A stretch of DNA of 24,000 nucleotides from Niastella koreensis GR20-10. GTDB taxonomy: Bacteria; Bacteroidota; Bacteroidia; Chitinophagales; Chitinophagaceae. The stretch lies in assembly GCF_000246855.1 (NCBI RefSeq), contig NC_016609.1, positions 4,824,744 through 4,848,743 of the forward strand. Direction: 5' to 3'. Positions 1,728-14,197 of the stretch are shown here, one piece after another (positions within the stretch are counted from its first letter, which is position 1; each line of letters starts with the position of its first letter). A program made the translations under genes and the position numbers. The notes beneath the pieces were generated by a model that ran no database searches, was not told where the DNA came from, and saw only the letters and a list, made by a program, of their open reading frames with translations.

Positions 1728-4700
1728 TTGCCATTCTTTAAATACCTATGCATCTTCTTGCTTGCAACGACTATGGCGGGCTTACTGCATGCCAGCCCTC
1801 ATTATTTCAGACATCTTGAGGTGGAAAATGGGCTGTCGAATAACAGCATTACCTGCAGTTTGCAGGACCACCTGGGTTTTATGTGGTTCGGTACCAAAGA
1901 CGGACTGAACCGCTATGACGGGTATTCTTTTAAAGTATTCAAAAAGATAGAAGGAAATAAAAAAGCGATCGGAAGCAATTTTATTCATTGCCTGTACGAA
2001 GACAAACAGGGAATACTATGGATTGGAACAGAGGGAGGGCTGTTCAGGTACTCTTCTCTTACCGAAGAATTTTCCTTTGTGGCCGCTACCACCAACCTGT
2101 TTATCGATAAGATTGATGAAGATGTAAGAGGCAATATCTGGCTGCTGTCATACTATAAGCTTTGCAGGTATGACAGGAGCACGGAAAAAATTAAACAATA
2201 TGACCCGGAGACTTACTTTACGGCGACTACCTTTTGCAACAGTCCTGATGGCTCCTTCTGGGTAGGCACCTCCCGGGGACTGCTGGAAAAATATGACTTT
2301 GCCACCGATAGGTTCTCGGGGTTTAATTTATTCAGTCATTCCGCGCCGTCTACCCGTCTTTGGGTGGAATGCTTATATATAACATCAGACGGGCATTTTA
2401 TTGCAGGAACCTCCGACAATAAAATCAAAGTATTCGATCCGGTTCATTATACCTATACTGACATTGCTTTGAGTGGCGATGAGCATGCAAATTTATTCAT
2501 TAAGAACTTCGTAGAGACCGCAAAAGGAGAATGGTGGTTTGGGACAAGCTCGGGCCTGTTTATTTATGACAGGAGAAATCAGTCGGTTCAGCAAATCAAA
2601 AAAGACTATAACAACCCTTATTCCATTAACGATAATTCCATCACTTCCATGTGCCGCGATAATGAGGGTGGCATATGGATTGGTACCTACTATGGTGGTA
2701 TCAACTACTTCGCCAACCAAATCGTATTCACAAAATATTTCCCCCAACGGGGCCAAAATTCATTGAGCGGCAACGTTGTGGGAGATATCAGGCAGGACCG
2801 CTACGGAAACCTGTGGATTGGCACCGAAGATGAAGGGCTGAATATGTTCGACCCTGCCACCGGCAGGTTCACTCATTTTGAAGCAGATGGCAAAGAAGGC
2901 AGCATCTCCTATTTTGAAATACACGGACTCCTGATGGTCGGAGACGAATTATGGATTGGGACCTACGAGCATGGCATTGACATCATGGATATTCGTACCA
3001 GGAAAGTCACCAGACGTTTTATAGCATGGAGAGACGGTTTTACGCATAATTATATTTATAACATTTACCAGGACAAAGCGGGGGAAATTTATATCTGTAC
3101 CGCCAGCGGTGCATATATCTTTAACAAGGGAAAAAACAATTTCAGCGTCCTGGACGGCATTCCCCCGTTTTGGTGCACATCTATCATTGCAGACCGGAAA
3201 AACCGGCTGTGGGTTTCAACATTCGGGTATGGTATATACCTGCGAAGCAAATATGGCGGTAAAACAGATCGCCTTTGCTATGATGAAAAAGATCCCACCA
3301 GTCTTATCAGCAACCGGGTAACTTCGATATACGAGGCCAGCAACGGCACTATCTGGGTGGCCACCGAATCCGGATTGTGCAAATGGAATGAAAAGGAGGG
3401 TAACTTTACGCGCTTTGGCATGGCAAACGGCTTCCCAAGCGATTTTATTTTATCCATCCTGGAAGATGCGGAAAAGAATCTATGGCTCAGCACTACCAAA
3501 GGCCTTGTAAGATTTCATCCTTCGACGGGAAAGGTGGAAGTGTTTACCACCTCAAACGGGTTAATCAGCGATCAGTTCAACTATCATTCAGCCTTTAAAG
3601 CTCCCGATGGTTCCATGTATTTCGGCAGCACCAAAGGGCTGGTTAGCTTTCACCCCAGCCATTTTGAGCAAAGCACATTTACACCACCGATCTACCTGAC
3701 CAATTTCCAGGTAAACGGTCAGGAAATATTCCCTGATGACCCCGATTCGCTTTTGAAGCAATCCATTTTGTACACAAAGGAAATTACGCTCCGGCACAAC
3801 CAGTCTATTTTTAATATAGACTTTGCGGCGCCGAATTATTCGGCGCCGAAGATGGTAGAATATGCCTACCAGATGCAGGGCCTCACCAATAACTGGATCT
3901 ATCTGAAGGACAGCCGGCGGGCAAGCTTTACTGAGCTGGCTGCCGGAAGCTATGTATTCTGCGTAAAAGCCTTCACCAACAATGGATGGAGCAAGGAAAC
4001 AAAATTGCTTATAACGATATTGCCGCCGTGGTGGCAGAGCCGCACAGCGTACAGCCTGTATGCCGTTCTTTTCGTTTTACTGATCTTTGTTTTGGTGCGT
4101 TACTATCATCGCCGGGTAAATGAAAAAAACAAAAGAAATTTCGAGCTCCTGAGAATCGAAAAAGAAAAAGAGGTGCTTGAAATGGAACTGAAGAATGAAA
4201 AAATTCTGTTACAGGCTAAAATTGATTTTTTTACCAATGTCGCCCATGAAATAAGGACGCCGTTGACATTGATTAAAGTGCCGCTAAAAAAGGTCATCAG
4301 GAAATTGGGATTCAACGCCGAGATTGGCAATAGCTTACAAATAATGGAACGGAATACCGACCGGCTCATAGAGCTGAGCGGCCAGCTATTGGACTTCAGG
4401 CAAACGGAACTGAAGAATGTTCAATTGTATTTCGAACGAAAGGAAATCAATCAATTAATAGCCGAAGCCTGTTCGGGGTTTACCACTTTGGCGGAGCAAA
4501 ACAACATATCTTTTCAAATGGAGATTCCTCAGGAGCCCTTGTTTGCCTGTATAGATGTGGATGCTTTTCATAAGATCATATATAATCTTTTCAGCAATGC
4601 GGTTAAATATGCCCACACCAGCGTTTGCATTAGCCTGCTGCCGTATTATAACAGCAACGACAGCTTCACGCTTAAAGTCAAAAATGACGGAAATATCATA

Positions 4701-4934
4701 CCTTACGAGTTAAAGGAAAATATTTTCAAACCGTTCTTCCGTATCCGGCAAACAGAAAACCAAACCGGTACGGGAATCGGGCTTGCGTTAGCCCTTTCAT
4801 TGGCCGATTTACATGGCGGCAGCCTGGTGCTCGATACGCCGGAGAACAATATGAACGTATTCACATTTACCATGCCGGTTAATGACGGGTTATGTGAAGA
4901 TAATTCCATAAAGAATATTACTGCTGCGGATTAA
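1728..4934 (+). CDS. Sensor histidine kinase with periplasmic two-component-regulator propeller repeats and a Y_Y_Y-like region (HTCS-type sensor without the receiver)
   Basis: 1068-aa ORF with a hydrophobic N-terminus (YLCIFLLATTMAGLLHA). It has more than 10 propeller-type repeats (MWFGTKDGL, LWIGTEGGL, FWVGTSRGL, WWFGTSSGL, IWIGTYYGG, LWIGTEDEGL, LWVSTFGYG, IWVATESGL, LWLSTTKGL). A TM helix follows (AYSLYAVLFVLLIFVLVRYY), then a coiled coil, H-box FFTNVAHEIRTPLTLI, N-box NLFSNAVKYA and G-boxes VKNDG / GTGIGLALA. The start is TTG at 1728; the only in-frame ATG (1773) would remove the signal/TM segment, so the start is uncertain. Confidence 0.92.
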   Translation: MPFFKYLCIFLLATTMAGLLHASPHYFRHLEVENGLSNNSITCSLQDHLGFMWFGTKDGLNRYDGYSFKVFKKIEGNKKAIGSNFIHCLYEDKQGILWIGTEGGLFRYSSLTEEFSFVAATTNLFIDKIDEDVRGNIWLLSYYKLCRYDRSTEKIKQYDPETYFTATTFCNSPDGSFWVGTSRGLLEKYDFATDRFSGFNLFSHSAPSTRLWVECLYITSDGHFIAGTSDNKIKVFDPVHYTYTDIALSGDEHANLFIKNFVETAKGEWWFGTSSGLFIYDRRNQSVQQIKKDYNNPYSINDNSITSMCRDNEGGIWIGTYYGGINYFANQIVFTKYFPQRGQNSLSGNVVGDIRQDRYGNLWIGTEDEGLNMFDPATGRFTHFEADGKEGSISYFEIHGLLMVGDELWIGTYEHGIDIMDIRTRKVTRRFIAWRDGFTHNYIYNIYQDKAGEIYICTASGAYIFNKGKNNFSVLDGIPPFWCTSIIADRKNRLWVSTFGYGIYLRSKYGGKTDRLCYDEKDPTSLISNRVTSIYEASNGTIWVATESGLCKWNEKEGNFTRFGMANGFPSDFILSILEDAEKNLWLSTTKGLVRFHPSTGKVEVFTTSNGLISDQFNYHSAFKAPDGSMYFGSTKGLVSFHPSHFEQSTFTPPIYLTNFQVNGQEIFPDDPDSLLKQSILYTKEITLRHNQSIFNIDFAAPNYSAPKMVEYAYQMQGLTNNWIYLKDSRRASFTELAAGSYVFCVKAFTNNGWSKETKLLITILPPWWQSRTAYSLYAVLFVLLIFVLVRYYHRRVNEKNKRNFELLRIEKEKEVLEMELKNEKILLQAKIDFFTNVAHEIRTPLTLIKVPLKKVIRKLGFNAEIGNSLQIMERNTDRLIELSGQLLDFRQTELKNVQLYFERKEINQLIAEACSGFTTLAEQNNISFQMEIPQEPLFACIDVDAFHKIIYNLFSNAVKYAHTSVCISLLPYYNSNDSFTLKVKNDGNIIPYELKENIFKPFFRIRQTENQTGTGIGLALALSLADLHGGSLVLDTPENNMNVFTFTMPVNDGLCEDNSIKNITAAD

Positions 4935-4943
4935 ATCTCACAT

Positions 4944-5714
4944 ATGAAACGGAAAATACTGCTGGTAGAAGATAATCCGGAGATGCTGGAGGTGATTACC
5001 GACGAGCTAAGCGAGCATTACCAGGTACAGGCTGCCAGGGACGGCATTCAGGCAATCAAAGTTCTTAAGAACGAATCCGTAGACCTGGTAATTACCGATA
5101 TCATGATGCCTTTTATGGATGGGTTTGAGCTTTGTAAGACTATTAAATCGGATGTGGAATTCAGCCATGTTCCTGTTATCTTATTAACAGCAAAAAACAC
5201 CCTGCAATCGAAAATAGAAGGGCTGGGATTAGGAGCAGATGCCTACATTGAAAAGCCTTTTGATCCCGAGCTGTTGCTGGCACAAATTGCCAACCTGCTG
5301 GACAACCGTAGAAAGCTCAAGCAGCATTTTGCGCACTCCCCTATTGCCAAGCTGAATTCGATGGCCTATACGCATTCCGATGAATTTTTCCTGGAAAAAC
5401 TGGATGCGACGATTCAAAATAACATCGATGATACCGACCTGGATGTGGACAAGCTCGCCCGTTTGATGAATCTCGGCCGCACCAGCCTGTTTCGCAAGAT
5501 CAAATCACTTACCGATCTGACACCCAATGAGCTTGTAAACATTACCCGGCTTAAAAAAGCCGCCGAATTATTAGCCAGCGATGATCTCCTGATCTATGAG
5601 GTTTCGGTTATGGTCGGTTACCGTTCACAAACCAATTTTGGCCGGAATTTTTTTAAAACAGTTCGGCATGAGTCCCAAAGACTTTCAAAAGAGCAAACGA
5701 GGGGGGAAGGCTGA
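4944..5714 (+). CDS. Response regulator with AraC-type HTH output; the C-terminal ~20 aa appear frameshifted
   Basis: REC domain: MKRKILLVEDNPEM, DLVITDIMMPFMDG, LLTAK, IEKPF. HTH_AraC domain: VDKLARLMNLGRTSLFRKIKSLT...VGYRSQTNF. The ORF tail ...GRNFFKTVRHESQRLSKEQTRGEG is not AraC-like. After the T7 run at 5648-5654, the adjacent frame reads LKQFGMSPKDFQKSKRGGKAENK* (stop at 5722-5724), which is the canonical AraC C-terminus. Confidence 0.9.
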   Translation: MKRKILLVEDNPEMLEVITDELSEHYQVQAARDGIQAIKVLKNESVDLVITDIMMPFMDGFELCKTIKSDVEFSHVPVILLTAKNTLQSKIEGLGLGADAYIEKPFDPELLLAQIANLLDNRRKLKQHFAHSPIAKLNSMAYTHSDEFFLEKLDATIQNNIDDTDLDVDKLARLMNLGRTSLFRKIKSLTDLTPNELVNITRLKKAAELLASDDLLIYEVSVMVGYRSQTNFGRNFFKTVRHESQRLSKEQTRGEG

Positions 5715-5915: not shown

Positions 5916-6455
5916 ATGAGCGATCAATTTGAGGTTCTCAAAAGAGAAAATGTATCGACAAAAAACCAACAGGTGTTTGACCAGATCAAAAGCTTACTGG
6001 GTGCTGTCCCTAATCTCTATTCAACACTGGCCTATTCTGAAAATGCGCTTGAGGCATACTTCAGGTTGGAAACCAGTCCAAATTCTTTAAGTGCAAGAGA
6101 AGTAGCAATAGTGAACCTGGTAGTTAGTGAAATAAATAATTGTATGTATAGCCTGAGCGTGTTTACGATGATTGCCAAACAATCCGGTTTCACGGAAGAA
6201 CAAACCATTGAGATAAGATCTGGCTGCGCTTCGTTTGACACCCAACTGGATGCATTGATAAAATTGACAAGGGAACTTTCCCGTAAGAAAAATATAGAAA
6301 CCCAACAGTTGTTGGACGCTTTTTATATGGCCGGTTATACCAAAGAAAACTTAATGGACATCATCATTCTAATTGGCGATAGAACAATAAGCAATTTGCT
6401 GCATACAGTTACCAGGGTTCCGATCGAATTCCCCCTGGCAAAAACGATTGATTAA
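5916..6455 (+). CDS. Carboxymuconolactone decarboxylase / AhpD-like family protein (paralogue 1; CxxS variant of the CxxC motif)
   Basis: 179 aa. The AhpD-core-like segment is SAREVAIVNLVVSEINNCMYSLSVFTMIAK. It aligns colinearly with the paralogue at 8841-9380, including shared SASFD..L.AL.KL and AGYTKE.L.D blocks. Confidence 0.8.
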   Translation: MSDQFEVLKRENVSTKNQQVFDQIKSLLGAVPNLYSTLAYSENALEAYFRLETSPNSLSAREVAIVNLVVSEINNCMYSLSVFTMIAKQSGFTEEQTIEIRSGCASFDTQLDALIKLTRELSRKKNIETQQLLDAFYMAGYTKENLMDIIILIGDRTISNLLHTVTRVPIEFPLAKTID

Positions 6456-6514: not shown

Positions 6515-7186
6515 ATGAAAAGTTCGATTACCATCAAATTCAGGTCCCTGGCTGTTGTCATATCATTGGCATGCACAACAGGATTGGTTCAGGCACAGGA
6601 TAATGCTCAGCCTGTTGATACGAAACAGCTATCTTATATTAGTCCGCAAAAACCAGAAGACATCAGTCCATTACTCAACGGGGAGAAGATCCCTACGGGG
6701 TTGCTGCCTGATGTTTCGGGAAAGATCTTTGACCTGAACAAGGCAGTGTCTGAAAAACCAACCGTATTGATCATTTATCGTGGTGGCTGGTGTCCTTATT
6801 GTTCCAAACAGCTTTCAGGCTTGCGGCAAGCGGCGCCAGAACTGGAAAAGCTGGGTTATCAATTGATCGCTGTTAGTACGGATGCCCCGGAAGGGCTTAT
6901 GCAATCTGTAACAAAAGAAAAAATAAGTTTCACCCTGCTATCTGACGCAGACCTTAGCTTCTCCAAACAGTTTGGATTAGCTTACAAAGCGCCAATGGGA
7001 TATTGGGAAATGCTGTTAAAATCCACACATGGAAAAGACGTCGATTTGTTACTTCCCGTACCATCTGTATTTATACTGAACAAAAAAGGCGCAATACAAT
7101 TCGAATATATCAATCCTGATTTCAAACAACGGCTGAACCCGGATCTTTTAAAAACCGTAGCGGCCAGTATCATAAAAGAACTTTAA
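6515..7186 (+). CDS. Secreted AhpC/TSA-family peroxiredoxin-like (PRX_like2-type) thiol-disulfide oxidoreductase
   Basis: 223 aa with a signal peptide (SLAVVISLACTTGLVQAQ). It has a thioredoxin-fold motif, VLIIYRGGWCPYCSKQL, followed by LIAVSTD and FTLLSDADL, which are typical of this family. Confidence 0.85.
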   Translation: MKSSITIKFRSLAVVISLACTTGLVQAQDNAQPVDTKQLSYISPQKPEDISPLLNGEKIPTGLLPDVSGKIFDLNKAVSEKPTVLIIYRGGWCPYCSKQLSGLRQAAPELEKLGYQLIAVSTDAPEGLMQSVTKEKISFTLLSDADLSFSKQFGLAYKAPMGYWEMLLKSTHGKDVDLLLPVPSVFILNKKGAIQFEYINPDFKQRLNPDLLKTVAASIIKEL

Positions 7187-7197
7187 ACTAAAAAATC

Positions 7198-7668
7198 ATG
7201 TCTGAAGCCATGAGCAGCAAAATATTTTTAGTTATTAGCCTGATTGGGTTTACAATTGGATTACGCGTGGTCGTTGCACACGCTAAAGAAAAGCAAAACG
7301 TGAAGCAGGCTGAGAAGAAAATATCATTTGTTAATGGCAAATGGAAGGATGTAGCAGCGCTGGCAAAGAAAAAAGGCAAATATATTTTTGTGGATGCATA
7401 TACTGCCTGGTGTGCTCCATGCCGTCAACTCAAAAATGTTACATTCAAAGACAGGGAGGCCGCGGCGTTTTACAATGGAAACTTTATCAGTTATACGGTT
7501 GACATGGAAAAAGGCGAAGGTGTAGAATTAGCTGAAAAATGGGATGTTACGGCGTATCCTACATTGTTATTCTTTACACCTGAAGGTAAAATGGTTATGA
7601 CACAGGTTGGATACGTGAATGGAAAGCAATTGATTGAATTTGGCAAGCAAGCACTTGAAAAACTCTAA
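7198..7668 (+). CDS. Membrane-anchored or secreted thioredoxin-fold protein (WCAPC active site)
   Basis: 156 aa with an N-terminal hydrophobic segment (IFLVISLIGFTIGLRVVVA). Motifs are FVDAYTAWCAPCRQL and the cis-Pro region VTAYPTLLFF. Confidence 0.85.
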   Translation: MSEAMSSKIFLVISLIGFTIGLRVVVAHAKEKQNVKQAEKKISFVNGKWKDVAALAKKKGKYIFVDAYTAWCAPCRQLKNVTFKDREAAAFYNGNFISYTVDMEKGEGVELAEKWDVTAYPTLLFFTPEGKMVMTQVGYVNGKQLIEFGKQALEKL

Positions 7669-7678
7669 AAATAATATC

Positions 7679-7972
7679 ATGGAAACAATTTCGTTATTGG
7701 TCAGGCTTGAAGCAAAGCCAGGCAAAGAACAACAAGTAGCCAATTTCATAAAAGGCGCGCTGTCTTTGGCACAGCAGGAACAAAAAACCATCCGATGGTA
7801 TGCTTTGCAGATAGGACCTGCTACTTTTGGGATCTTCGATACGTTTGAAACTGAAGAAGGCAGGGATGCCCATCTTGGCGGTGAAATTGCAAAAGCGCTG
7901 ATGGCAAATGCGCCTGATTTACTGGCGAAAGCTCCGGAAATCGAAAAAGTGGCCATCCTGGCCTATAAGTAA
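7679..7972 (+). CDS. ABM (antibiotic-biosynthesis-monooxygenase-like, ferredoxin-fold) domain protein
   Basis: I prefer the ATG at 7679 (METISLLVRLEAKPGKEQQVANFIKGAL...) because the track start at 7634 overlaps the preceding gene. The protein would be 97 aa. The pattern V.L..KPGK....F......A..E..T..W.A is ABM-like. Confidence 0.7.
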   Translation: METISLLVRLEAKPGKEQQVANFIKGALSLAQQEQKTIRWYALQIGPATFGIFDTFETEEGRDAHLGGEIAKALMANAPDLLAKAPEIEKVAILAYK

Positions 7973-7977
7973 TCAAC

Positions 7978-8817
7978 ATGATAAGGGAGTATAACGATAA
8001 TGCGACATCGGCACGCTTTATCATGCACAGCGGCAATAAAATGTTTTCGGGTAAGGGGCTGAACAAACCGGCGCCTTACCCAATCAATACCTTCGTGTAT
8101 AATAAAGAGGCAGCCCAGGAAGTGGTTATCGACGAAATTGCCTATACGATGCCCGGAGGCTGCATCCTGCCGCTTGTTTCCAATCAGCATTTTATATTCG
8201 AGCACCCGGAATCCTTAATTGCCTGGCAGTTTAACCGGGAATTCTATTGTATTGTTGATCATGACGCAGAAGTAGGTTGTGTTGGTTTTCTGTTCTATGG
8301 AATACAGCACCCGATGTTCATTAAGTTGAACAAAGATGAAAGTGAAGAAATGTCACACCTGGAAAAAGTATTTTCAAATGAGCTATTGCTGAAAGATAAT
8401 TTCCAGGGAGAAATGCTTCGTACACTGTTGAAAAGGGTGATTATAAAAATCACCCGATTGGCCAAGTTCCAGAGCAAAGACTACCAACAATATCCCGTTG
8501 AAAAAATGGATCTCATAAGAAGCTTTTCTTTATTACTGGAAGGAAATTTCAAACAACAACACGAGGTGAGGTTTTATGCGGGAGCGCTTAACAAATCTCC
8601 CAAAACCCTCAGTAACGTTTTTGCACTGTTGAAACAGCCAGCCCCTTCAATCCTCATCCGGAACAGGATTGTGCTGGAAGCCAAACGTTACCTGCATTAT
8701 ACCGAAAAGTCAGCGAAGGAAATAGCTTATGAACTGGGTTTTGAAAGTCCGGCGCATTTTAGCAGGTTTTTCAAGATGTACGCCGGGACAAACATCTCTG
8801 AGTTTCGCAGTCAGTAA
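7978..8817 (+). CDS. AraC-family transcriptional regulator
   Basis: 279 aa. The C-terminal double HTH reads FYAGALNKSPKTLSNVF...LEAKRYLHYTEKSAKEIAYELGFESPAHFSRFFKMYAGTNISEFR. It sits in the middle of the redox gene cluster. Confidence 0.9.
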   Translation: MIREYNDNATSARFIMHSGNKMFSGKGLNKPAPYPINTFVYNKEAAQEVVIDEIAYTMPGGCILPLVSNQHFIFEHPESLIAWQFNREFYCIVDHDAEVGCVGFLFYGIQHPMFIKLNKDESEEMSHLEKVFSNELLLKDNFQGEMLRTLLKRVIIKITRLAKFQSKDYQQYPVEKMDLIRSFSLLLEGNFKQQHEVRFYAGALNKSPKTLSNVFALLKQPAPSILIRNRIVLEAKRYLHYTEKSAKEIAYELGFESPAHFSRFFKMYAGTNISEFRSQ

Positions 8818-8840
8818 GTAAGCCGTTAAATACAGTCAAG

Positions 8841-9380
8841 ATGGTAACGATAAATAGTTTTCCCAACGAAGCCGGATTAAATAAAAAGAACAAAAGTTAC
8901 CTGGAGTATTTCAATAAGAGGCTTGGTCGAACGCCCAACCTGTTAGTGACTATGATGCATTCAGACCAGGCACTGAGCACCTACTATACTTTTCATAGCC
9001 GAAAAACCTCCTTGTCAAAAAGGGAAATTGAGGCAATAACCCTCACCGTATCGCAGCATAATGGCGCAATGTACTGCCTGAGTGCACATACAATGATTGC
9101 AAAACTGAATGGTTTCAGCGACGAAAATATACTGGAATTGCGCAGGGCATCAGCTTCGTTTGACAGCAAACTGGAGGCTTTGGTAAAACTTGCGGTTTAT
9201 TTGGCAAGACATACGAATTCTATCGATAATAGCCTGCTTGACAATTTCTTTGCAGCGGGATATACAAAAGAGCATTTGATAGATATGCTTCAGGTGATAG
9301 GCGATACCGTTATTACAAATATTACAGGCAGGGTATTCCAGATCCCAATAGATTACCCCCCTGCGAAAGAGCTCTGGTAA
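8841..9380 (+). CDS. Carboxymuconolactone decarboxylase / AhpD-like family protein (paralogue 2; AxxC...H variant)
   Basis: 179 aa. The core segment is SKREIEAITLTVSQHNGAMYCLSAHTMIAK. It has the same length as, and is colinear with, the protein at 5916-6455. Confidence 0.8.
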   Translation: MVTINSFPNEAGLNKKNKSYLEYFNKRLGRTPNLLVTMMHSDQALSTYYTFHSRKTSLSKREIEAITLTVSQHNGAMYCLSAHTMIAKLNGFSDENILELRRASASFDSKLEALVKLAVYLARHTNSIDNSLLDNFFAAGYTKEHLIDMLQVIGDTVITNITGRVFQIPIDYPPAKELW

Positions 9381-9634: not shown

Positions 9635-10102
9635 ATGAAAAAAGCGGCGGCCATTTTAGTCCTTTTTGTCTCTACTCTCTCAGGGCTTCGGGCACAACAA
9701 GCTTCTGTACGTGTAAAACAATACAATATTGATAAATCGGGCCTGGCCATAGCAGGTTATGATCCCGTAGCCTACTTCATCGACAATAAAGCCCTTGAAG
9801 GCAGCAAAGATATTACAACGGTGTATCAAGGGATTACTTATCGCTTCGCTTCGGTAGGCAATAGGAATGTGTTTAAGGCCAACCCCTTAAAATACGAACC
9901 ACAATATGGAGGCTGGTGCGCCTATGCAATGGGCGCAAAAGGCGAAAAGGTAGAAGTGGATCCGGAAACATTTAAAATCGTTGATGGCAAATTGTTTTTG
10001 TTCTATAATAAATATTTCAACAATACACTCAAAATCTGGAACAAGGATGAAGCCCATCTTAAAACCAGTGCAGATCAAAGCTGGACAAAATTTATTCAAT
10101 AG
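9635..10102 (+). CDS. YHS-domain protein with signal peptide
   Basis: I prefer the ATG at 9635 (MKKAAAILVLFVSTLSGLRAQQ). Motifs are LAIAGYDPVAYF, YRFASVGNRNVFKANPLKYEPQYGGWCAYAM and DGKLFLFYN, which are typical of the YHS-domain family. The Cys in GGWCAY is an ordinary Cys codon. Confidence 0.8.
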   Translation: MKKAAAILVLFVSTLSGLRAQQASVRVKQYNIDKSGLAIAGYDPVAYFIDNKALEGSKDITTVYQGITYRFASVGNRNVFKANPLKYEPQYGGWCAYAMGAKGEKVEVDPETFKIVDGKLFLFYNKYFNNTLKIWNKDEAHLKTSADQSWTKFIQ

Positions 10103-10201
10103 TTTTTGCCCCGGAGGGCAAAGCTATCAAAGGCTATGACGCAATGGCTTTTTTCTTCCACTTCACTATAAAAATCCCTTTTACCCCAACAATCTATCAG
10201 C

Positions 10202-10612
10202 ATGACTAAAAGACAACAACGTTTGATTACCTGGATATTCCGGGTTATAGCAGCACTTATTATGTTGCAGACATTATTTTTCAAGTTTACAGCCGCTCCC
10301 GAGTCGGTATATATTTTTTCCAAACTGGGTATGGAACCCTGGGGGCGCATAGGCATCGGAGTACTGGAGCTGGTCGCTTCAATACTCATTCTTATCCCCC
10401 GGACAATCGCCTTTGGCGCCCTGCTGGGCCTGGGATTGATGAGCGGAGCCATTTTTTTTCATCTTACCCGATTGGGCATCGTAGTACAAAATGATGCCGG
10501 TGAGTTATTCATATATGCCTTGCTGGTTTTTATCAGTTGCCTGATACTGGCAGTTGTTTACAGAGCTCAGCTACCAGGGTTATTCTTCAAAACAAAACAT
10601 GACCACTTATGA
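10202..10612 (+). CDS. DoxX-family small integral membrane protein
   Basis: 136 aa with four hydrophobic segments. A DoxX-like pattern is present (FRVIAALIMLQTLFFKF, GIGVLELVASILILIPRT). The stop overlaps the next start (ATGA at 10609-10612). Confidence 0.75.
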   Translation: MTKRQQRLITWIFRVIAALIMLQTLFFKFTAAPESVYIFSKLGMEPWGRIGIGVLELVASILILIPRTIAFGALLGLGLMSGAIFFHLTRLGIVVQNDAGELFIYALLVFISCLILAVVYRAQLPGLFFKTKHDHL

Positions 10613-11109
10613 TAGCGCAAATAACCCAACCAGTAACATCGCTCCTGAGTCAACTGCAGACCCTGCTGGAAATGCTCACAGACGACCAGTACAGTGAAAA
10701 AGTACCTTTACTTTCCAATGCTTCCCTTGGACAGCATGTACGGCATATTATTGAGTTCTTTCTGGAACTGGAGAATGGCTATGCTACCGGAACTGTCAAT
10801 TACGATGGGCGCAAACGGGATTTTGCAATAGAGACCAGGCGCAGCGCTGCCCTTGATGCGATACAGGTTGTTACTATGAATTTAAAAAAAGAAAACAAAC
10901 AGTTGATGCTGACAGCAGATTTTGGAAGCGACGCCCTCTGCCAGGTTCTTACCAGTTATGAACGGGAGTTGGTGTATAACCTGGAGCATACCATTCATCA
11001 CATGGCGCTTTTAAGAATTGGTGTCAATGCAGTATCTGCCGTTGAATTACCCGACAATTTTGGTGTGGCTATTTCTACCCTTAAATACAGAAAGCTATGT
11101 GCACAGTAA
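10609..11109 (+). CDS. DinB-like (four-helix-bundle, His-triad) superfamily protein
   Basis: 166 aa. It contains LTDDQYSEK...SLGQHVRHIIEFF...NLEHTIHHMALL, that is, conserved His residues spaced as in the DinB/DinB_2 family. It overlaps both neighbours. Confidence 0.65.
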   Translation: MIAQITQPVTSLLSQLQTLLEMLTDDQYSEKVPLLSNASLGQHVRHIIEFFLELENGYATGTVNYDGRKRDFAIETRRSAALDAIQVVTMNLKKENKQLMLTADFGSDALCQVLTSYERELVYNLEHTIHHMALLRIGVNAVSAVELPDNFGVAISTLKYRKLCAQ

Positions 11110-12884
11110 CTTTTATACCTACCTCAAAGGGCATTTACCTTACATCCAACAGGGATGAAAATAAGCACCGCAGCCAGGCTTTACCTCCGGCACAATATAG
11201 CAGCAGTGCAGGCCGGCTCATCTACCCGAAGGATCAGGATGCCTCCGGTAGCTGGATAGGCCTGAAAGAAAACGGGGATGCAGCCGTATTGCTCAACGGC
11301 GCTTTTGATAACCATACACGACAGCCGGCCTATCGTAAAAGCAGGGGCTTGATTTTCCTTGATATTTTTGAGCATTGCAATCCCGGTGAAAGTTTTAGTA
11401 CAATAGACCTAAATTATATAGAACCCTTTACCCTGGTGGTTTACTTCAATAGGCAGCTATGGGAATACCGCTGGGACGGTCACAGGAAACACACGCTTTT
11501 ACTGGATGCAACCAAGCCGCATATCTGGTCTTCTGCTACATTATACGATACTAGTGCCAAACAACAAAGAAAGCGGTGGTTTTTGAAATGGTTTTCATCT
11601 ACCAGCCCCATAGACATATCAAAAGTCATGGGTTTTCATCAGTATGGCGGGCTGGGCGATCTATACAACGGTCTGGTGATAGACAGAGGTAACATGCACA
11701 CCGTCAGCATTACTTCTGTTTTTGGGAATGCTGGCAGCCCCCTGATGAACTACCATGACCTGCAAACGGGTGCAAACGTCTCAACGAAATTTGAACGACC
11801 CGCTTTGCCTTCCAAAGAAAGCGTTTTTCAAAAAGCTTCCTTGTTTGTAAGAAGGGCCCGGATCAAAATAGCTAATTGGGAATTCTGGCCTTTGCACCTG
11901 GTATATGGTCCGCTTTACTTTTATTGGTGCTGGCTAAGCATTCGGGCGCGCTCCCTGTTTTTTTTCAGTGCAGCCAATCCGGGCATACAGTACTCTGGCT
12001 TTGTACATGAGCGCAAAAGTGAAATTTATAAGTTAATCCCTAAGCAATATTACCCGCTAACAAAACTCTGTACGGCAGGCCAGCCCGAGTTAAAGTTAGC
12101 GCAGAACCTGAAAAGAGAAGGATTATTATTTCCAATGATAGCCAAACCTGATGTGGGTGAACGGGGTATACAGGTTAAATTATTGCATTCCCAAGCGGAA
12201 CTTGAGATGTATGCCAGTCGCAGCAAAGTAGATTTTCTGCTCCAACAATTCATTTCCTATAAACAGGAAGTGGGTATTTTCTACTACCGGATCCCTGGCC
12301 AGGACAGGGGATATATCTCCGGTATTGTAGGCAAAGAGTTTCTCACTGTTACCGGTGATGGAAAATCCAGTATAGAGTCACTGGTAAAGGACGAAGATCG
12401 TTTTCTGTTACAGCTATCCGCATTGAGATATACTTATGGCGATTTTCTAAATACGGTATTAGCTGAAGGAGCAGAGTGCGTTCTGGTTCCGTATGGCAGC
12501 CATAGCAGGGGCGCGAAATTTATTGACCTGAGCTACCAGATCACCGAAAAGCTTACCCAGGTAATTGACGGGGTATGCAGGCAGATCCCGGGATTCTATT
12601 ATGGCAGGCTGGATATAAAATTCAATAGCTGGGAAGAGCTGTGTGAAGGAAAAAACTTTTCTATTATTGAACTGAACGGCGCAGGCAGTGAACCTACTCA
12701 TATTTATGATCCTGGGCATTCCCTGTTATATGCCTGGAAAGAGATCTGCCGGCACTGGCATTTGCTTTATAAGATCAGCCGCCTGAATGCCCGGCAAAAA
12801 ACACTTGTGCTAATGAATAGCAGAGAGGGTATAAAAATGATCAGGGACCATCATCGTTATTTAAAAACAATCACACAGGTATGA
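11097..12884 (+). CDS. Fusion protein: NRDE/TANGO2-like domain (N-terminal Met-Cys) + hydrophobic segment + ATP-grasp ligase domain
   Basis: 595 aa. It begins MCTVTFIPTSKGIYLTSNRDE. A hydrophobic stretch, WEFWPLHLVYGPLYFYWCWLSI, lies mid-protein. The C-terminal part is ATP-grasp-like: FPMIAKPDVGERGIQVKLL, EVGIFYYR, YYGRLDIKF, FSIIELNGAGSEPTHIYDP. Confidence 0.75.
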   Translation: MCTVTFIPTSKGIYLTSNRDENKHRSQALPPAQYSSSAGRLIYPKDQDASGSWIGLKENGDAAVLLNGAFDNHTRQPAYRKSRGLIFLDIFEHCNPGESFSTIDLNYIEPFTLVVYFNRQLWEYRWDGHRKHTLLLDATKPHIWSSATLYDTSAKQQRKRWFLKWFSSTSPIDISKVMGFHQYGGLGDLYNGLVIDRGNMHTVSITSVFGNAGSPLMNYHDLQTGANVSTKFERPALPSKESVFQKASLFVRRARIKIANWEFWPLHLVYGPLYFYWCWLSIRARSLFFFSAANPGIQYSGFVHERKSEIYKLIPKQYYPLTKLCTAGQPELKLAQNLKREGLLFPMIAKPDVGERGIQVKLLHSQAELEMYASRSKVDFLLQQFISYKQEVGIFYYRIPGQDRGYISGIVGKEFLTVTGDGKSSIESLVKDEDRFLLQLSALRYTYGDFLNTVLAEGAECVLVPYGSHSRGAKFIDLSYQITEKLTQVIDGVCRQIPGFYYGRLDIKFNSWEELCEGKNFSIIELNGAGSEPTHIYDPGHSLLYAWKEICRHWHLLYKISRLNARQKTLVLMNSREGIKMIRDHHRYLKTITQV

Positions 12885-13540
12885 AAAGGGAAATAACATT
12901 GATCTGTTGGGCCCTGGTCATCAGCTTTGCAGGTTCGTTACCATTGGGAGTTTTAAATATCAGTGTAGCTGATTATATATTTCATCATGACGTAGCAGGA
13001 GGTATTGGATTTTCGATAGCCGCTATTGGCGTGGAAATGATTTTGGTTCGTATTGCCCTTACTGCGGTTAAAAGGCTTGAAACAATGAAACGTTTTTATC
13101 CTTTGTTTGGCATACTGACCATTACCCTATTAATGGTGTTGGCTTTTAATTCCCTGTTCTCCGCCAATAGCAGCCAGGGGTTCAGACCCTCACCGTTAAC
13201 CACTCTTCCCCCGGAGGTGGCAGGCTTCCTGTTAAGCGTCATGAATCCGTTGCATCTGCCTTTCTGGATAGGCTGGACAGCTGTCTTAAAATCCCGTCAG
13301 CTACTGAATGATCAACCTTCATCCTACAACCGTTTTGTTATCGCCATTGGTATCGGCACGGCGGGCGCTTTTGTATTATACGGTATTGCAGGTCATTACC
13401 TGATTGGACTATTGGGTTCTCAACAAGTTTTATTAAACTATCTGATAGGCATCACCTTACTGGTTACCGCACTACTTCAATTCTATAAGACATTTTGCAG
13501 GCCAGTTATAAGGACAAGATGGCCCCGTTCCCAAATTTAA
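12881..13540 (+). CDS. LysE/RhtB-like multi-pass membrane exporter
   Basis: 219 aa with about 6 hydrophobic helices. A LysE-type motif region is present (GFLLSVMNPLHLPFWIGW). The start overlaps the upstream stop (ATGA at 12881-12884). Confidence 0.65.
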   Translation: MKREITLICWALVISFAGSLPLGVLNISVADYIFHHDVAGGIGFSIAAIGVEMILVRIALTAVKRLETMKRFYPLFGILTITLLMVLAFNSLFSANSSQGFRPSPLTTLPPEVAGFLLSVMNPLHLPFWIGWTAVLKSRQLLNDQPSSYNRFVIAIGIGTAGAFVLYGIAGHYLIGLLGSQQVLLNYLIGITLLVTALLQFYKTFCRPVIRTRWPRSQI

Positions 13541-13873
13541 GCTCACAGCAAATAAGTTAATATATACCTGATTTCCTCTATCAAAGCAAGCCTGGATGCA
13601 CACCTGCCTTTCAGACATTGGTTTATCTTTTATCTTCTTTTCTTTCGGATCTGTTTTTTTGTTTTGCGCCCGGGTAGTTAAAGCAAGCGTAGTCAGAATA
13701 ACTGTGGCGACGATTATCCTGCCGATAAGGCTCAACAGGACTGAGCTGTCCAGTACATTCCCGATGGTTACGATTTCAGACTGGGCCGGGGGTGTATCAT
13801 GGTCTTTTTTGCAGGCGGCCAGCGACAGAACAGCGGCGAGTAACGTAACCGTTTTTAATAAGTTATATTTCAT
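13472..13873 (-). CDS. Small hypothetical lipoprotein with an additional TM segment
   Basis: The N-terminus MKYNLLKTVTLLAAVLSLAAC has a clear lipobox. It is followed by a hydrophobic helix (LLSLIGRIIVATVILTTLALTT) and a Lys-rich tail. The 3' 69 nt overlap the convergent LysE-like gene, which lowers confidence in the exact end. Confidence 0.45.
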   Translation of the reverse strand: MKYNLLKTVTLLAAVLSLAACKKDHDTPPAQSEIVTIGNVLDSSVLLSLIGRIIVATVILTTLALTTRAQNKKTDPKEKKIKDKPMSERQVCIQACFDRGNQVYINLFAVSLNLGTGPSCPYNWPAKCLIELK

Positions 13874-13921: not shown

Positions 13922-14160
13922 GAGTTGCAGAATTGTAACAAAAGTATCAATATCGGAATGCGGGCCGCTGAATTACCGGGAGCTTAATGATTATAGTTAT
14001 AAGCGGCAATTGAAGGTTGAAGAAAAAGAGTTTTCAATAGTGTGGCATTTCAACAGGTAAACATCTAATAGCCCCCATAAAGGATAATAGTAAAAAAATA
14101 CGGATGAGTAACACGTCCGGGGTCTCTGTTTTTGTGAAAGGTGCTAAAGGAAACAAAAAG

Positions 14161-14197
14161 AGGCTGTATCATACTTTTGATACAGCCTCTAGTTTTT
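14161..14197 (-). terminator. Strong intrinsic terminator hairpin, best for the minus strand, with an A-tract and T-tract on both sides
   Basis: AGGCTGTATC (14161-14170) pairs perfectly with GATACAGCCT (14179-14188) across an 8-nt loop. It is flanked by AAACAAAAAG upstream and CTAGTTTTT downstream. On the minus strand the U-tract follows the stem directly. It would insulate the lipoprotein gene from ppsA read-through. Confidence 0.6.

Follow-up and report, generated by a model that had tools for sequence, protein, structure and literature searches.

The MprF systems that add amino acids to membrane lipids have a tRNA-dependent transferase that makes an ester, with its synthase domain fused to a flippase domain, and a separate hydrolase for the aminoacyl-phosphatidylglycerol product. 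In the bacterial amino-acid lipids (aminolipids), a taurine- or amine-adding step has been known biochemically since the 1970s. Aminolipid head groups are most diverse in the Bacteroidota and include ornithine-serine-glycine (Orn-Ser-Gly) lipids, and the enzymes that extend these head groups are not known (PMC12971839). Transfer of taurine to the carboxyl group of ornithine lipid is ATP-dependent but its gene is unknown, and glycine lipid is an intermediate of the serine-glycine (Ser-Gly) lipid flavolipin, for which no ligase has been named (PMC12971839). Here we describe a locus at 10202-13540 in a 24,000-nucleotide (nt) stretch of the Niastella koreensis GR20-10 genome (contig NC_016609.1, positions 4,824,744 to 4,848,743; hereafter the window), in which genes for a DoxX-family protein, a DinB-like protein, an NRDE::ATP-grasp fusion protein and a LysE-like membrane protein lie together. 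The account we favour, while thinking that it could well be wrong, is that the locus is a Bacteroidota version of an envelope module, widespread and uncharacterised, whose proteins act on a membrane amino-acid lipid: they would ligate an amide-linked head group, edit it and translocate it. Envelope antioxidant genes lie beside it here.

The four open reading frames (ORFs) are all on the forward strand, at 10202-10612 (136 residues), 10609-11109 (166 residues), 11097-12884 (595 residues) and 12881-13540 (219 residues). Two of the junctions, read directly from the window letters, are ATGA overlaps, one between the DoxX and DinB-like genes (10609-10612) and one between the ligase and LysE-like genes (12881-12884). 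At the third (11097-11109, +) the stop of the DinB-like gene lies within a 13-nt overlap, ATGTGCACAGTAA, with the start of NRDE, which reads Met-Cys-Thr-Val. An earlier reading made from the letters of this DNA (the sequence-only reading) had described four same-strand ORFs with ATGA, 13-nt and ATGA overlaps, and all are exactly where it placed them. The 13-nt overlap recurs, in the form ATGTGYACAGTAA, in 67 of 71 related loci. Across the window and these 67 loci the third codon positions of NRDE Thr3 (ACA) and Val4 (GTA) are near-invariant; this preserves the C-terminal Cys-Ala-Gln-stop of the DinB-like frame and suggests selection on both frames or on the coupling sequence itself.

Gene order was compared in 80 Bacteroidota loci, one genome per species, from the Chitinophagaceae, Sphingobacteriaceae, Flavobacteriaceae, Cytophagales and Saprospirales. 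The DinB-like gene is directly 5' of NRDE in 77 of the 80 (by tblastn), and clustering of ORFs places DoxX in 63 and the LysE-like gene 3' of the ligase in 41. The order is kept across all of these groups, and the synteny within Bacteroidota on which the sequence-only reading had staked its proposal is therefore borne out. Judged by the recurrence of the 13-nt overlap and by the order kept across Bacteroidota groups, the four-gene arrangement is far beyond chance. The evidence supports one conserved, tightly coupled unit, and its genes are probably co-transcribed.

The 595-residue protein has two domains. Residues 1-235 (11097-11801, +) are an NRDE/TANGO2 domain, assigned by profile and fold and predicted to be a cysteine N-terminal-nucleophile (Ntn) amidohydrolase or acyltransferase. 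Residues 1-150 match Pfam TANGO2 (PF05742) with 43.5 bits against a cut-off of 22.6, and in an AlphaFold model of the whole fusion (predicted local distance difference test, pLDDT, 81) the N-terminal domain has the αββα fold and matches the human TANGO2 structures 8sv7 and 9bwa in Foldseek searches. Cys2, Arg19-Asp20-Glu21, Arg25 and Asn67 are invariant in both alignments of the domain, Asn18 is kept in at least 90%, and a profile alignment to human TANGO2 8sv7 places the NRDE motif, R25, GGTW and N67 on their counterparts. In the TANGO2 crystal study the corresponding residue set is described as a cysteine Ntn hydrolase active site; the structure is likened to isopenicillin-N acyltransferase (IAT), bile-salt hydrolase, NAAA and acid ceramidase, with fatty-acid derivatives put forward as substrates (PMC13044924).

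The function of TANGO2/NRDE proteins is contested, the candidates being a haem chaperone, an acyl-CoA binder and a Cys-Ntn hydrolase. If the domain were a haem-trafficking protein, as is reported for the Shewanella TANGO2 homologue HtpA (PMC10470608), it might feed haem proteins of the envelope, with the other genes as accessories, and the DM13 'electron transfer' domain proteins that recur near these loci would fit such a role. However, the haem role of TANGO2 homologues is disputed (PMC12782551), the haem binding seen in the crystal study is non-specific only (PMC13044924), no cytochrome or haem-biosynthesis genes are present in the loci, and both the strict conservation of the Cys-Ntn catalytic set and the fusion to a ligase argue for an enzyme. 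Haem handling seems to us very improbable. The fusion of NRDE to ATP-grasp, its coupling to the DinB-like gene and its embedding in lipid operons (see below) argue instead for an enzyme of amide or lipid metabolism.

Residues 236-595 (11802-12884, +) form an ATP-grasp domain, predicted from its fold and invariant residues to be a carboxylate-amine ligase. It is below the Pfam cut-off (RimK, 16.3-17.6 bits against 21), and a PDB sequence search with the NRDE::ATP-grasp fusion gave marginal matches only, so that a fold search was needed. Foldseek matches the ligase domain to the cyanophycin synthetase G domain (E = 8.5e-10) and also to GshF and Ddl (chains 7wae, 7ta5, 3ln7 and Ddl, E = 1e-9 to 1e-7). 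K350, D506, E525 and N527 are invariant, giving the conserved Lys and E-x-N of the fold, and are putative ATP/Mg residues. The amidase/ligase call of the sequence-only reading is upheld by these fold matches and the TANGO2 profile. A family-specific aromatic helix (NWEFWP...Y.P.Y.YW.WLS.RARS.FFF.AANP) precedes the ligase core. Hydropathy shows no transmembrane (TM) segment between NRDE and ligase, and with a maximum Kyte-Doolittle 19-residue mean of 0.9 a classical transmembrane anchor at this position is ruled out. We note that one gene call in the protein collection (P0024, 338 residues, MANWEFWP...; window 11868-12884) spans the ATP-grasp part alone, and that its start is an ATA (codon 258), even though the ORF in the window runs without interruption from 11097.

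The best profile matches of the ligase are to RimK, and for one homologue to TTL, and some homologues are named 'tubulin-tyrosine ligase family', as might be expected of an enzyme that extends a protein or peptide, at its C-terminus or on a side chain, by residues that NRDE would trim. All of these matches are below cut-offs, though, and the loci have no conserved small substrate ORF with an acidic C-terminus; the C-terminus of the DinB-like protein (Cys-Ala-Gln) is set by the MCTV overlap and is not acidic. Protein or peptide tailing also does not predict the membrane-domain fusions or the Ols context described below, and we give it very little weight.

NRDE and the ligase occur in fused and split forms. 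A single NRDE::ATP-grasp ORF is present in the window and in about 23 loci (from Chitinophaga, Puia, Pedobacter, Mucilaginibacter and most Dyadobacter), and in 54 loci (drawn from L013-L080) the two are separate adjacent ORFs, which share a reading frame in 53 (e.g. L062:5404-7149, L036:8001-9770 and L029:8001-9791). At this site, which corresponds to window 11800-11900, the split ORFs are usually parted by one in-frame stop (mostly TAA) and 0-13 codons, and in 51 of the 54 loci the NRDE stop shares its frame with the conserved WEYW motif, at 16 different spacings of 30-135 nt. Retention of the frame could reflect repeated toggling between sense and stop codons, selection to keep the frame, or read-through. 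Selenocysteine insertion or programmed read-through is unlikely as a general rule, since TAA accounts for 44 of the 53 stops and two stops are present in several loci. Split forms are basal in a neighbour-joining tree of which the rooting is unreliable. That the two domains are either fused or encoded by adjacent ORFs in one frame suggests that NRDE and the ligase work together.

Three loci have a ligase without NRDE (L044, L050 and L076), and in these MCTV has become MRTV. In Dawidia and Parachryseolinea (L044:8019-9110 and L050:8019-9113) this ligase begins MRTV (ATGCGTACAGTA) at the conserved DinB overlap, a relic of MCTV left when an in-frame deletion took out the entire NRDE domain and Arg replaced the nucleophile Cys. 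These examples indicate that the ligase can persist without NRDE in cis. They would also fit a synthetase that can use a free amine (MCTV to MRTV), as in an amidotransferase acting on some other membrane-anchored envelope precursor by a MurT/GatD-like or AsnB-like logic. NRDE would then hydrolyse an amide donor and pass ammonia or an amine to the ATP-grasp domain, the target would be an undecaprenyl-phosphate-linked or other carboxylate, and a DedA or LysE protein would flip the carrier. Ntn amidotransferases have their Cys hydrolase at the N-terminus, ahead of the synthetase domain, the VTT domain of the relatives described below has the undecaprenyl-phosphate transporter UptA as its best NCBIfam match, and there are weak NCBIfam matches to carbamoyl-phosphate-synthase-like ATP-grasp proteins. 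NRDE/TANGO2, however, resembles the PVA/ceramidase/NAAA branch and not the class II glutaminases, and glycan or peptidoglycan genes do not recur in the neighbourhoods, whereas OlsBA and OlsF do. We consider an amidotransferase improbable.

The last gene of the unit (12881-13540, +) is predicted from its homologues and hydropathy to encode a LysE/RhtB-type membrane translocator with 5-6 TM helices. The LysE call of the sequence-only reading holds in part: the 219-residue window protein has no direct LysE profile match even at E<=10, but PF01810 is present in 29 of the 38 homologues found, some of them 41-65% identical, and several are named as LysE family by NCBI. Conserved residues are G18/P21/G23/N26 and N122/P127/F128/W129/W132. 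There is no conserved Cys in the alignment, which rules out a DsbD/CcdA-type electron conduit. In one relative (P0335) a LysE-type protein is fused N-terminally to the ligase (LysE::grasp), and this protein also has a weak SfLAP match.

The ligase belongs to a large family whose members and partners are annotated merely as 'NRDE family', 'DinB family', 'D-alanine--D-alanine ligase' or 'hypothetical'. A search with the ligase domain recovered 2793 clusters (50% identity) at E<=0.001, 2024 at E<=1e-10 and 1089 at E<=1e-30, most of them about 350 residues long. The longer members are fusions of four types: LysE::ATP-grasp, VTT(DedA)::ATP-grasp, Abhydrolase::VTT::ATP-grasp and NRDE::Abhydrolase::VTT::ATP-grasp. 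VTT-type ligases are about 40% identical to that of the window, their DinB-like proteins are about 30% identical, and the aromatic motif (W-E-F/Y-W...N-P) is invariant in the VTT-type fusions too, directly after the membrane domain. The same partners recur around them. L083 and L086 have DinB-NRDE-Abh::VTT::grasp; in L081 DinB precedes the four-domain fusion, and an OlsF-like gene points the other way, divergent from them; L088 has OlsB-OlsA-DinB-x::VTT::grasp on one strand; and L084 has the Bacteroidota-like order YHS-DoxX-DinB-NRDE-LysE::grasp. An annotated operon of Salinivibrio has VTT, a 'D-alanine--D-alanine ligase' (ATP-grasp), a DinB family gene and an NRDE family gene.

We assembled 90 VTT-type loci, 80 of them added by a metagenome scan. 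A homologue of OlsB, OlsA or OlsF is present in 46 of the 90 irrespective of flank length, and in 22 of the 26 that have at least 2.5 kb on both sides. A DinB-like gene is found in 51 of the 90, NRDE in 36, an α/β-hydrolase in 56 and DoxX in 20. The Ols gene is on the same strand and within about 1.1 kb of the block in 34 of the 46 Ols-positive loci, and in NCBIfam these neighbours match OlsB, OlsA and OlsF best, with scores under the equivalog cut-offs. The fusion of the ligase to lipid-translocator-like domains, together with this adjacency to Ols genes, points to a membrane amino-acid lipid as substrate rather than to a soluble exported thiol. The lipid link appears strong for the VTT-type branch, and would reach the LysE-type locus of the window only by homology and by the same set of partners.

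Two further observations concern the hydrolase and the wider family. A downstream α/β-hydrolase in Bacteroidota loci (cluster c23) is 23-31% identical to the fused Abhydrolase domain, and a specific homology between them was dismissed because this likeness is generic. In Paracoccus denitrificans PD1222 plasmid 1 (L172, 5920-9646) a stand-alone ligase homologue lies with an α/β-hydrolase and a VTT protein and adjoins the gene for a type I methionine aminopeptidase; the annotation nearby includes no DinB, NRDE or Ols gene.

Functional statements for the module as a whole draw on sequence, fold, fusion and neighbourhood. Its core set would be a DinB-like metalloprotein, an NRDE/TANGO2 Cys-Ntn amidohydrolase, an ATP-grasp ligase, a membrane translocator (LysE-type here and DedA/VTT in other phyla, often fused to the ligase) and DoxX, to which the Bacteroidota version would add one or two periplasmic single-Cys YHS proteins. 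The ligase may sit at the cytoplasmic face of the inner membrane, held there by its aromatic N-terminal helix and its translocator partner, and would use ATP to couple a glycine-, ornithine- or lysine-type N-acyl amino-acid lipid, through its free carboxylate, to an amino acid or comparable amine. The product would be an extended, amide-linked head group, and the LysE or VTT partner would carry the lipid to the outer leaflet. NRDE, and elsewhere also the α/β-hydrolase, would remove or edit amide or ester bonds of the lipid; the DinB-like protein, made in fixed coupling with NRDE, probably acts with it, and DoxX may be a conserved membrane partner. In the window, its genes and those for the periplasmic antioxidant proteins are probably regulated together, in a response to envelope stress.

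A more specific proposal is possible but doubtful, namely that the ATP-grasp family is the long-missing ATP-dependent head-group ligase of bacterial amino-acid lipids, with NRDE/TANGO2 as its partner lipid-amide hydrolase. One candidate reaction would make Ser-Gly flavolipin or Orn-Ser-Gly lipids from glycine lipid in Bacteroidota; another is the step that adds taurine or an amine. An ATP-dependent carboxylate-amine ligase fits the known biochemical gaps, because neither the taurine transferase gene nor the flavolipin ligase has been named. If true, this would give a first defined enzymatic substrate class to the TANGO2 family, which is mutated in human metabolic disease. Aminolipids with extended head groups (flavolipin/lipid 654, Orn-Ser-Gly lipids and cerilipin) matter for stress resistance and host immune signalling, and the module is a testable candidate for their synthesis. 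A literature search found no paper on this operon; the module and its link to aminolipid operons appear to be undescribed, and its components belong to known superfamilies.

The DinB-like protein (10609-11109, +) is placed in the DinB superfamily of four-helix-bundle proteins by its predicted fold and conserved His set. Its profile matches are below the Pfam cut-offs (DinB_2, 17.1 bits against 24.8; DinB, 13.4 bits against 23), and weak DinB_2 matches are present in 11 of 16 orthologues (best E = 2e-4). The top Foldseek matches of its AlphaFold2 model (pLDDT 92) are all DinB/YfiT proteins (2f22, 2qe9, 3dka, 3qth, 3gor and 1rxq, with TM-scores of 0.54-0.62), and the orthologue alignment has five invariant His residues (H43, H46, H127, H130 and H131) at metal-triad positions, so the DinB assignment made in the sequence-only reading stands despite the sub-threshold Pfam scores. 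The protein is probably a metalloprotein, and has a further, distinctive set of invariant Arg, Glu and Tyr residues (R45, E49, Y58, Y65, R68, R70, R119 and E120). The fold is a generic one: as modelled, it would imply no thiol cofactor, and likeness of fold alone would not discriminate a thiol S-transferase of the BstA/MST type.

At the other end of the unit, the DoxX gene (10202-10612, +) encodes a DoxX-family integral membrane protein with about four TM helices; it matches Pfam DoxX_2 (PF13564) with 34.9 bits against a cut-off of 26.3 and has four hydrophobic segments, in agreement with the original DoxX call. Upstream of it lies the gene for a periplasmic YHS-domain protein (9635-10102, +), with its ATG at 9635 and its stop at 10100-10102. 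The product has a signal peptide, seen as an N-terminal hydrophobic segment in the hydropathy profile, and matches NCBIfam NF041384, 'YHS domain-containing (seleno)protein', with 140.8 bits against a cut-off of 70. Its single invariant Cys (Cys95, in GGWC) is at the Sec/Cys position of the family and is kept in 85 of 85 orthologues. YHS genes are found by ORF clustering in 58 of the 80 Bacteroidota loci, usually directly 5' of DoxX and often as two tandem copies.

In the window there is a 99-nt gap between the YHS stop and the DoxX ATG (10202), and the sequence-only reading took the YHS gene to be set off from the unit by it. This is not supported by the relatives, in which the YHS-DoxX spacing is mostly 0-40 nt and the genes sometimes overlap; this short spacing shows that YHS belongs to the unit and that the unit is larger than four genes. 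A minimum free energy (MFE) fold of the gap places two hairpins at 10099-10152 (+). The first is GC-rich (TTTGCCC-CGGA-GGGCAAA, about 10104-10121, extending to 10099-10127 in the MFE fold) and has no T-tract, and the second (10129-10152) is weak and is followed by a U-run. The whole 99-nt gap has no significantly stronger fold than shuffled sequence (z = -1.57), and a terminator scan called none within it. A terminator parting YHS from the unit at this stem-loop (10105-10122 in the sequence-only reading) is thus unsupported, given the lack of a T-tract, the non-significant fold and the tight spacing in relatives.

Farther upstream is an envelope-redox cluster at 6515-9380 (+). It consists of genes for a secreted peroxiredoxin (6515-7186, +), a membrane-anchored thioredoxin (7198-7668, +), a small protein of 97-112 residues (7634/7679-7972, +), an AraC regulator (7978-8817, +) and an AhpD/CMD protein (8841-9380, +), all but the small protein being assigned by Pfam and NCBIfam. 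Leftward of the peroxiredoxin the cluster is extended by a second AhpD/CMD paralogue (5916-6455) and, within window 1728-5714, by genes for a 1068-residue Reg_prop/Y_Y_Y sensor histidine kinase and a response regulator (4944-5714). The peroxiredoxin, thioredoxin, AhpD and AraC neighbourhood pointed out in the sequence-only reading recurs across related loci: peroxiredoxin is directly 5' of YHS in Flavobacterium loci, and AraC with AhpD recurs in L003, L035, L062 and L074. This recurrence of peroxiredoxin, AraC and AhpD is an association and not proof of one transcript. Recurrent regulators and redox neighbours are Crp and AraC, and AhpD and peroxiredoxin; a lipoprotein or periplasmic MsrB is directly 5' of DinB in L070, L072 and L075; and other recurrent neighbours are DM13, YceI and outer membrane β-barrel proteins, a 302-residue secreted protein and an extracytoplasmic function (ECF) sigma/anti-sigma pair. 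The Bacteroidota module is wired to YHS, peroxiredoxin, thioredoxin, MsrB and DoxX, and this suggests that oxidative stress in the envelope and remodelling of the membrane are linked.

In several loci the LysE-like protein carries a C-terminal thioredoxin domain that has a CxxC motif and a Cys-containing, lipoprotein-like signal, or such a protein is encoded directly after it (L010:9785-10882/P0145, L018:10470-10922, L024:9691-10113 and L037:9779-10213). Among VTT-type loci, an AhpC/TSA peroxiredoxin lies beside the module in L083 (6721-7200) and L089 (8077-9076), the latter also having DoxX_2; these loci are outside the Bacteroidota set, and the peroxiredoxin/DoxX association is therefore not confined to the lineage of the window.

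These neighbours bear on the best rival explanation, in which cytoplasmic enzymes of the module make and turn over a small, soluble metabolite with an amide link. This could be a low-molecular-weight thiol or another reductant, and LysE would export it into the periplasm for use by YHS, the thioredoxin lipoprotein, peroxiredoxin and MsrB. NRDE::ATP-grasp might then resemble glutathionylspermidine synthetase/amidase with a peroxide-sensitive Cys amidase, or the genes might follow a protect-modify-deprotect logic like that of EgtA/EgtB/EgtC. This model alone explains the thioredoxin-LysE fusions together with the peroxiredoxin, MsrB and YHS neighbours. It accords with the amino-acid exporter names of LysE homologues, with the thioredoxin lipoproteins at LysE in L010/P0145, L018, L024 and L037, with MsrB directly 5' of DinB in three loci, with the recurrence of peroxiredoxin, thioredoxin and AhpD, with the single invariant Cys of YHS at the Sec/Cys position, and with a DinB fold common to thiol S-transferases and EgtB. 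However, profile searches of the unit proteins found no glutathione (GSH)-synthetase or Cys-ligase signature and no BshC or MshC-type matches, and among the four proteins and the neighbours scanned there is no family match to GshA/GshB, BshC, MshC, an FGE-bearing EgtB or EgtD. Nor does a thiol pathway predict the aromatic interfacial helix that replaces the normal N-domain of the ligase, or the DedA/VTT and α/β-hydrolase fusions in aminolipid operons. What survives of the small-thiol pathway put forward in the sequence-only reading is its looser part, a conjugate of an amino acid that a ligase/amidase makes and a membrane protein moves; the thiol itself lacks specific support, there being no Cys-ligase or GSH-synthetase signature and the DinB fold being generic. 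We regard the soluble metabolite as unlikely, though worth keeping in view.

Several points likewise weigh against the aminolipid module that we favour. No olsB, olsA, olsF or glsB homologue is present within 8 kb in the 80 Bacteroidota loci or in this 24-kb window, so that the lipid link would be transferred by homology from the sister, VTT-type branch, and there is no Ols neighbour at the proteobacterial relatives from Azospirillum, Paracoccus, Komagataeibacter and Salinivibrio, of which the first three lie on plasmids or chromids. The sub-equivalog matches of the Ols-like neighbours probably do not fix their lipid product, and the metagenomic loci are phylogenetically related, such that locus counts cannot be taken as independent events in evolution. 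The LysE proteins that have been characterised are exporters of soluble amino acids. The strong association in Bacteroidota with periplasmic thiol proteins (peroxiredoxin, the thioredoxin lipoprotein beside or fused to LysE, MsrB and YHS) is unexplained by a lipid ligase, the linkage of thioredoxin to LysE in particular, and no role can be assigned to the DinB-like protein or DoxX.

Two features downstream of the unit complete the region. A 133-residue ORF on the reverse strand (13472-13873, -), whose N-terminus (…LAAC) is lipoprotein-like, is convergent with the LysE-like gene and covers its last 69 nt; it is without a family match. There is a strong bidirectional hairpin at 14159-14190.

Comparison with described systems shows both likenesses and departures. 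The DinB-like protein has the four-helix bundle and the His set at metal-triad positions of the DinB/YfiT superfamily (BstA, MST and the EgtB N-terminal domain), but it has an extra β-hairpin, its own invariant Arg/Glu/Tyr set and no FGE domain. The LysE-like protein is related to the LysE/RhtB exporters and to Sap (the sulfolipid-1-addressing protein, of the LysE superfamily) through PF01810 in its homologues and the weak SfLAP match of P0335, and differs from LysE/RhtB exporters in having no direct LysE match and in the fusion of some relatives to a thioredoxin lipoprotein. The NRDE domain is like human TANGO2 and bacterial NRDE proteins such as HtpA in its PF05742 score, which exceeds the cut-off, in the αββα fold, and in keeping Cys2, the NRDE motif and the Arg and Asn that come after this motif; here, in contrast, it is fused to or directly 5' of ATP-grasp, is coupled to a DinB-like gene and has no haem-related context. 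Glutathionylspermidine synthetase/amidase (GspSA) is similarly bifunctional, with an N-terminal Cys amidase, a C-terminal ATP-dependent amide ligase and a link to oxidative stress, whereas its amidase is CHAP and not NRDE, its ligase is of another ATP-grasp-like family, and it is soluble and without a membrane partner or DinB. Pfam, NCBIfam and PDB sequence searches gave no CHAP or GspS-type match to the window proteins, and the likeness to GspSA is in logic alone.

The closest systems on the lipid side are the acyloxyacyl aminolipid synthases OlsBA, OlsF and GlsBA. The VTT-type sister branch has homologues of OlsB, OlsA or OlsF beside it in operons; the 24-kb window, in contrast, has no Ols or Gls gene, and its ligase is not an acyltransferase. 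The ATP-dependent taurine transferase that makes cerilipin, an addition to a head-group carboxylate, is a known activity without a gene. In the MprF-type aminoacyl-phosphatidylglycerol systems the logic would be the same as that proposed here, with stress-linked addition of an amino acid to a lipid at the cytoplasmic face, a translocator and a dedicated hydrolase. The enzyme families are unrelated, however, and in place of those of MprF the module has an ATP-grasp enzyme predicted to make an amide, LysE or DedA/VTT proteins as its putative translocators, and DinB-like, NRDE and DoxX partners.

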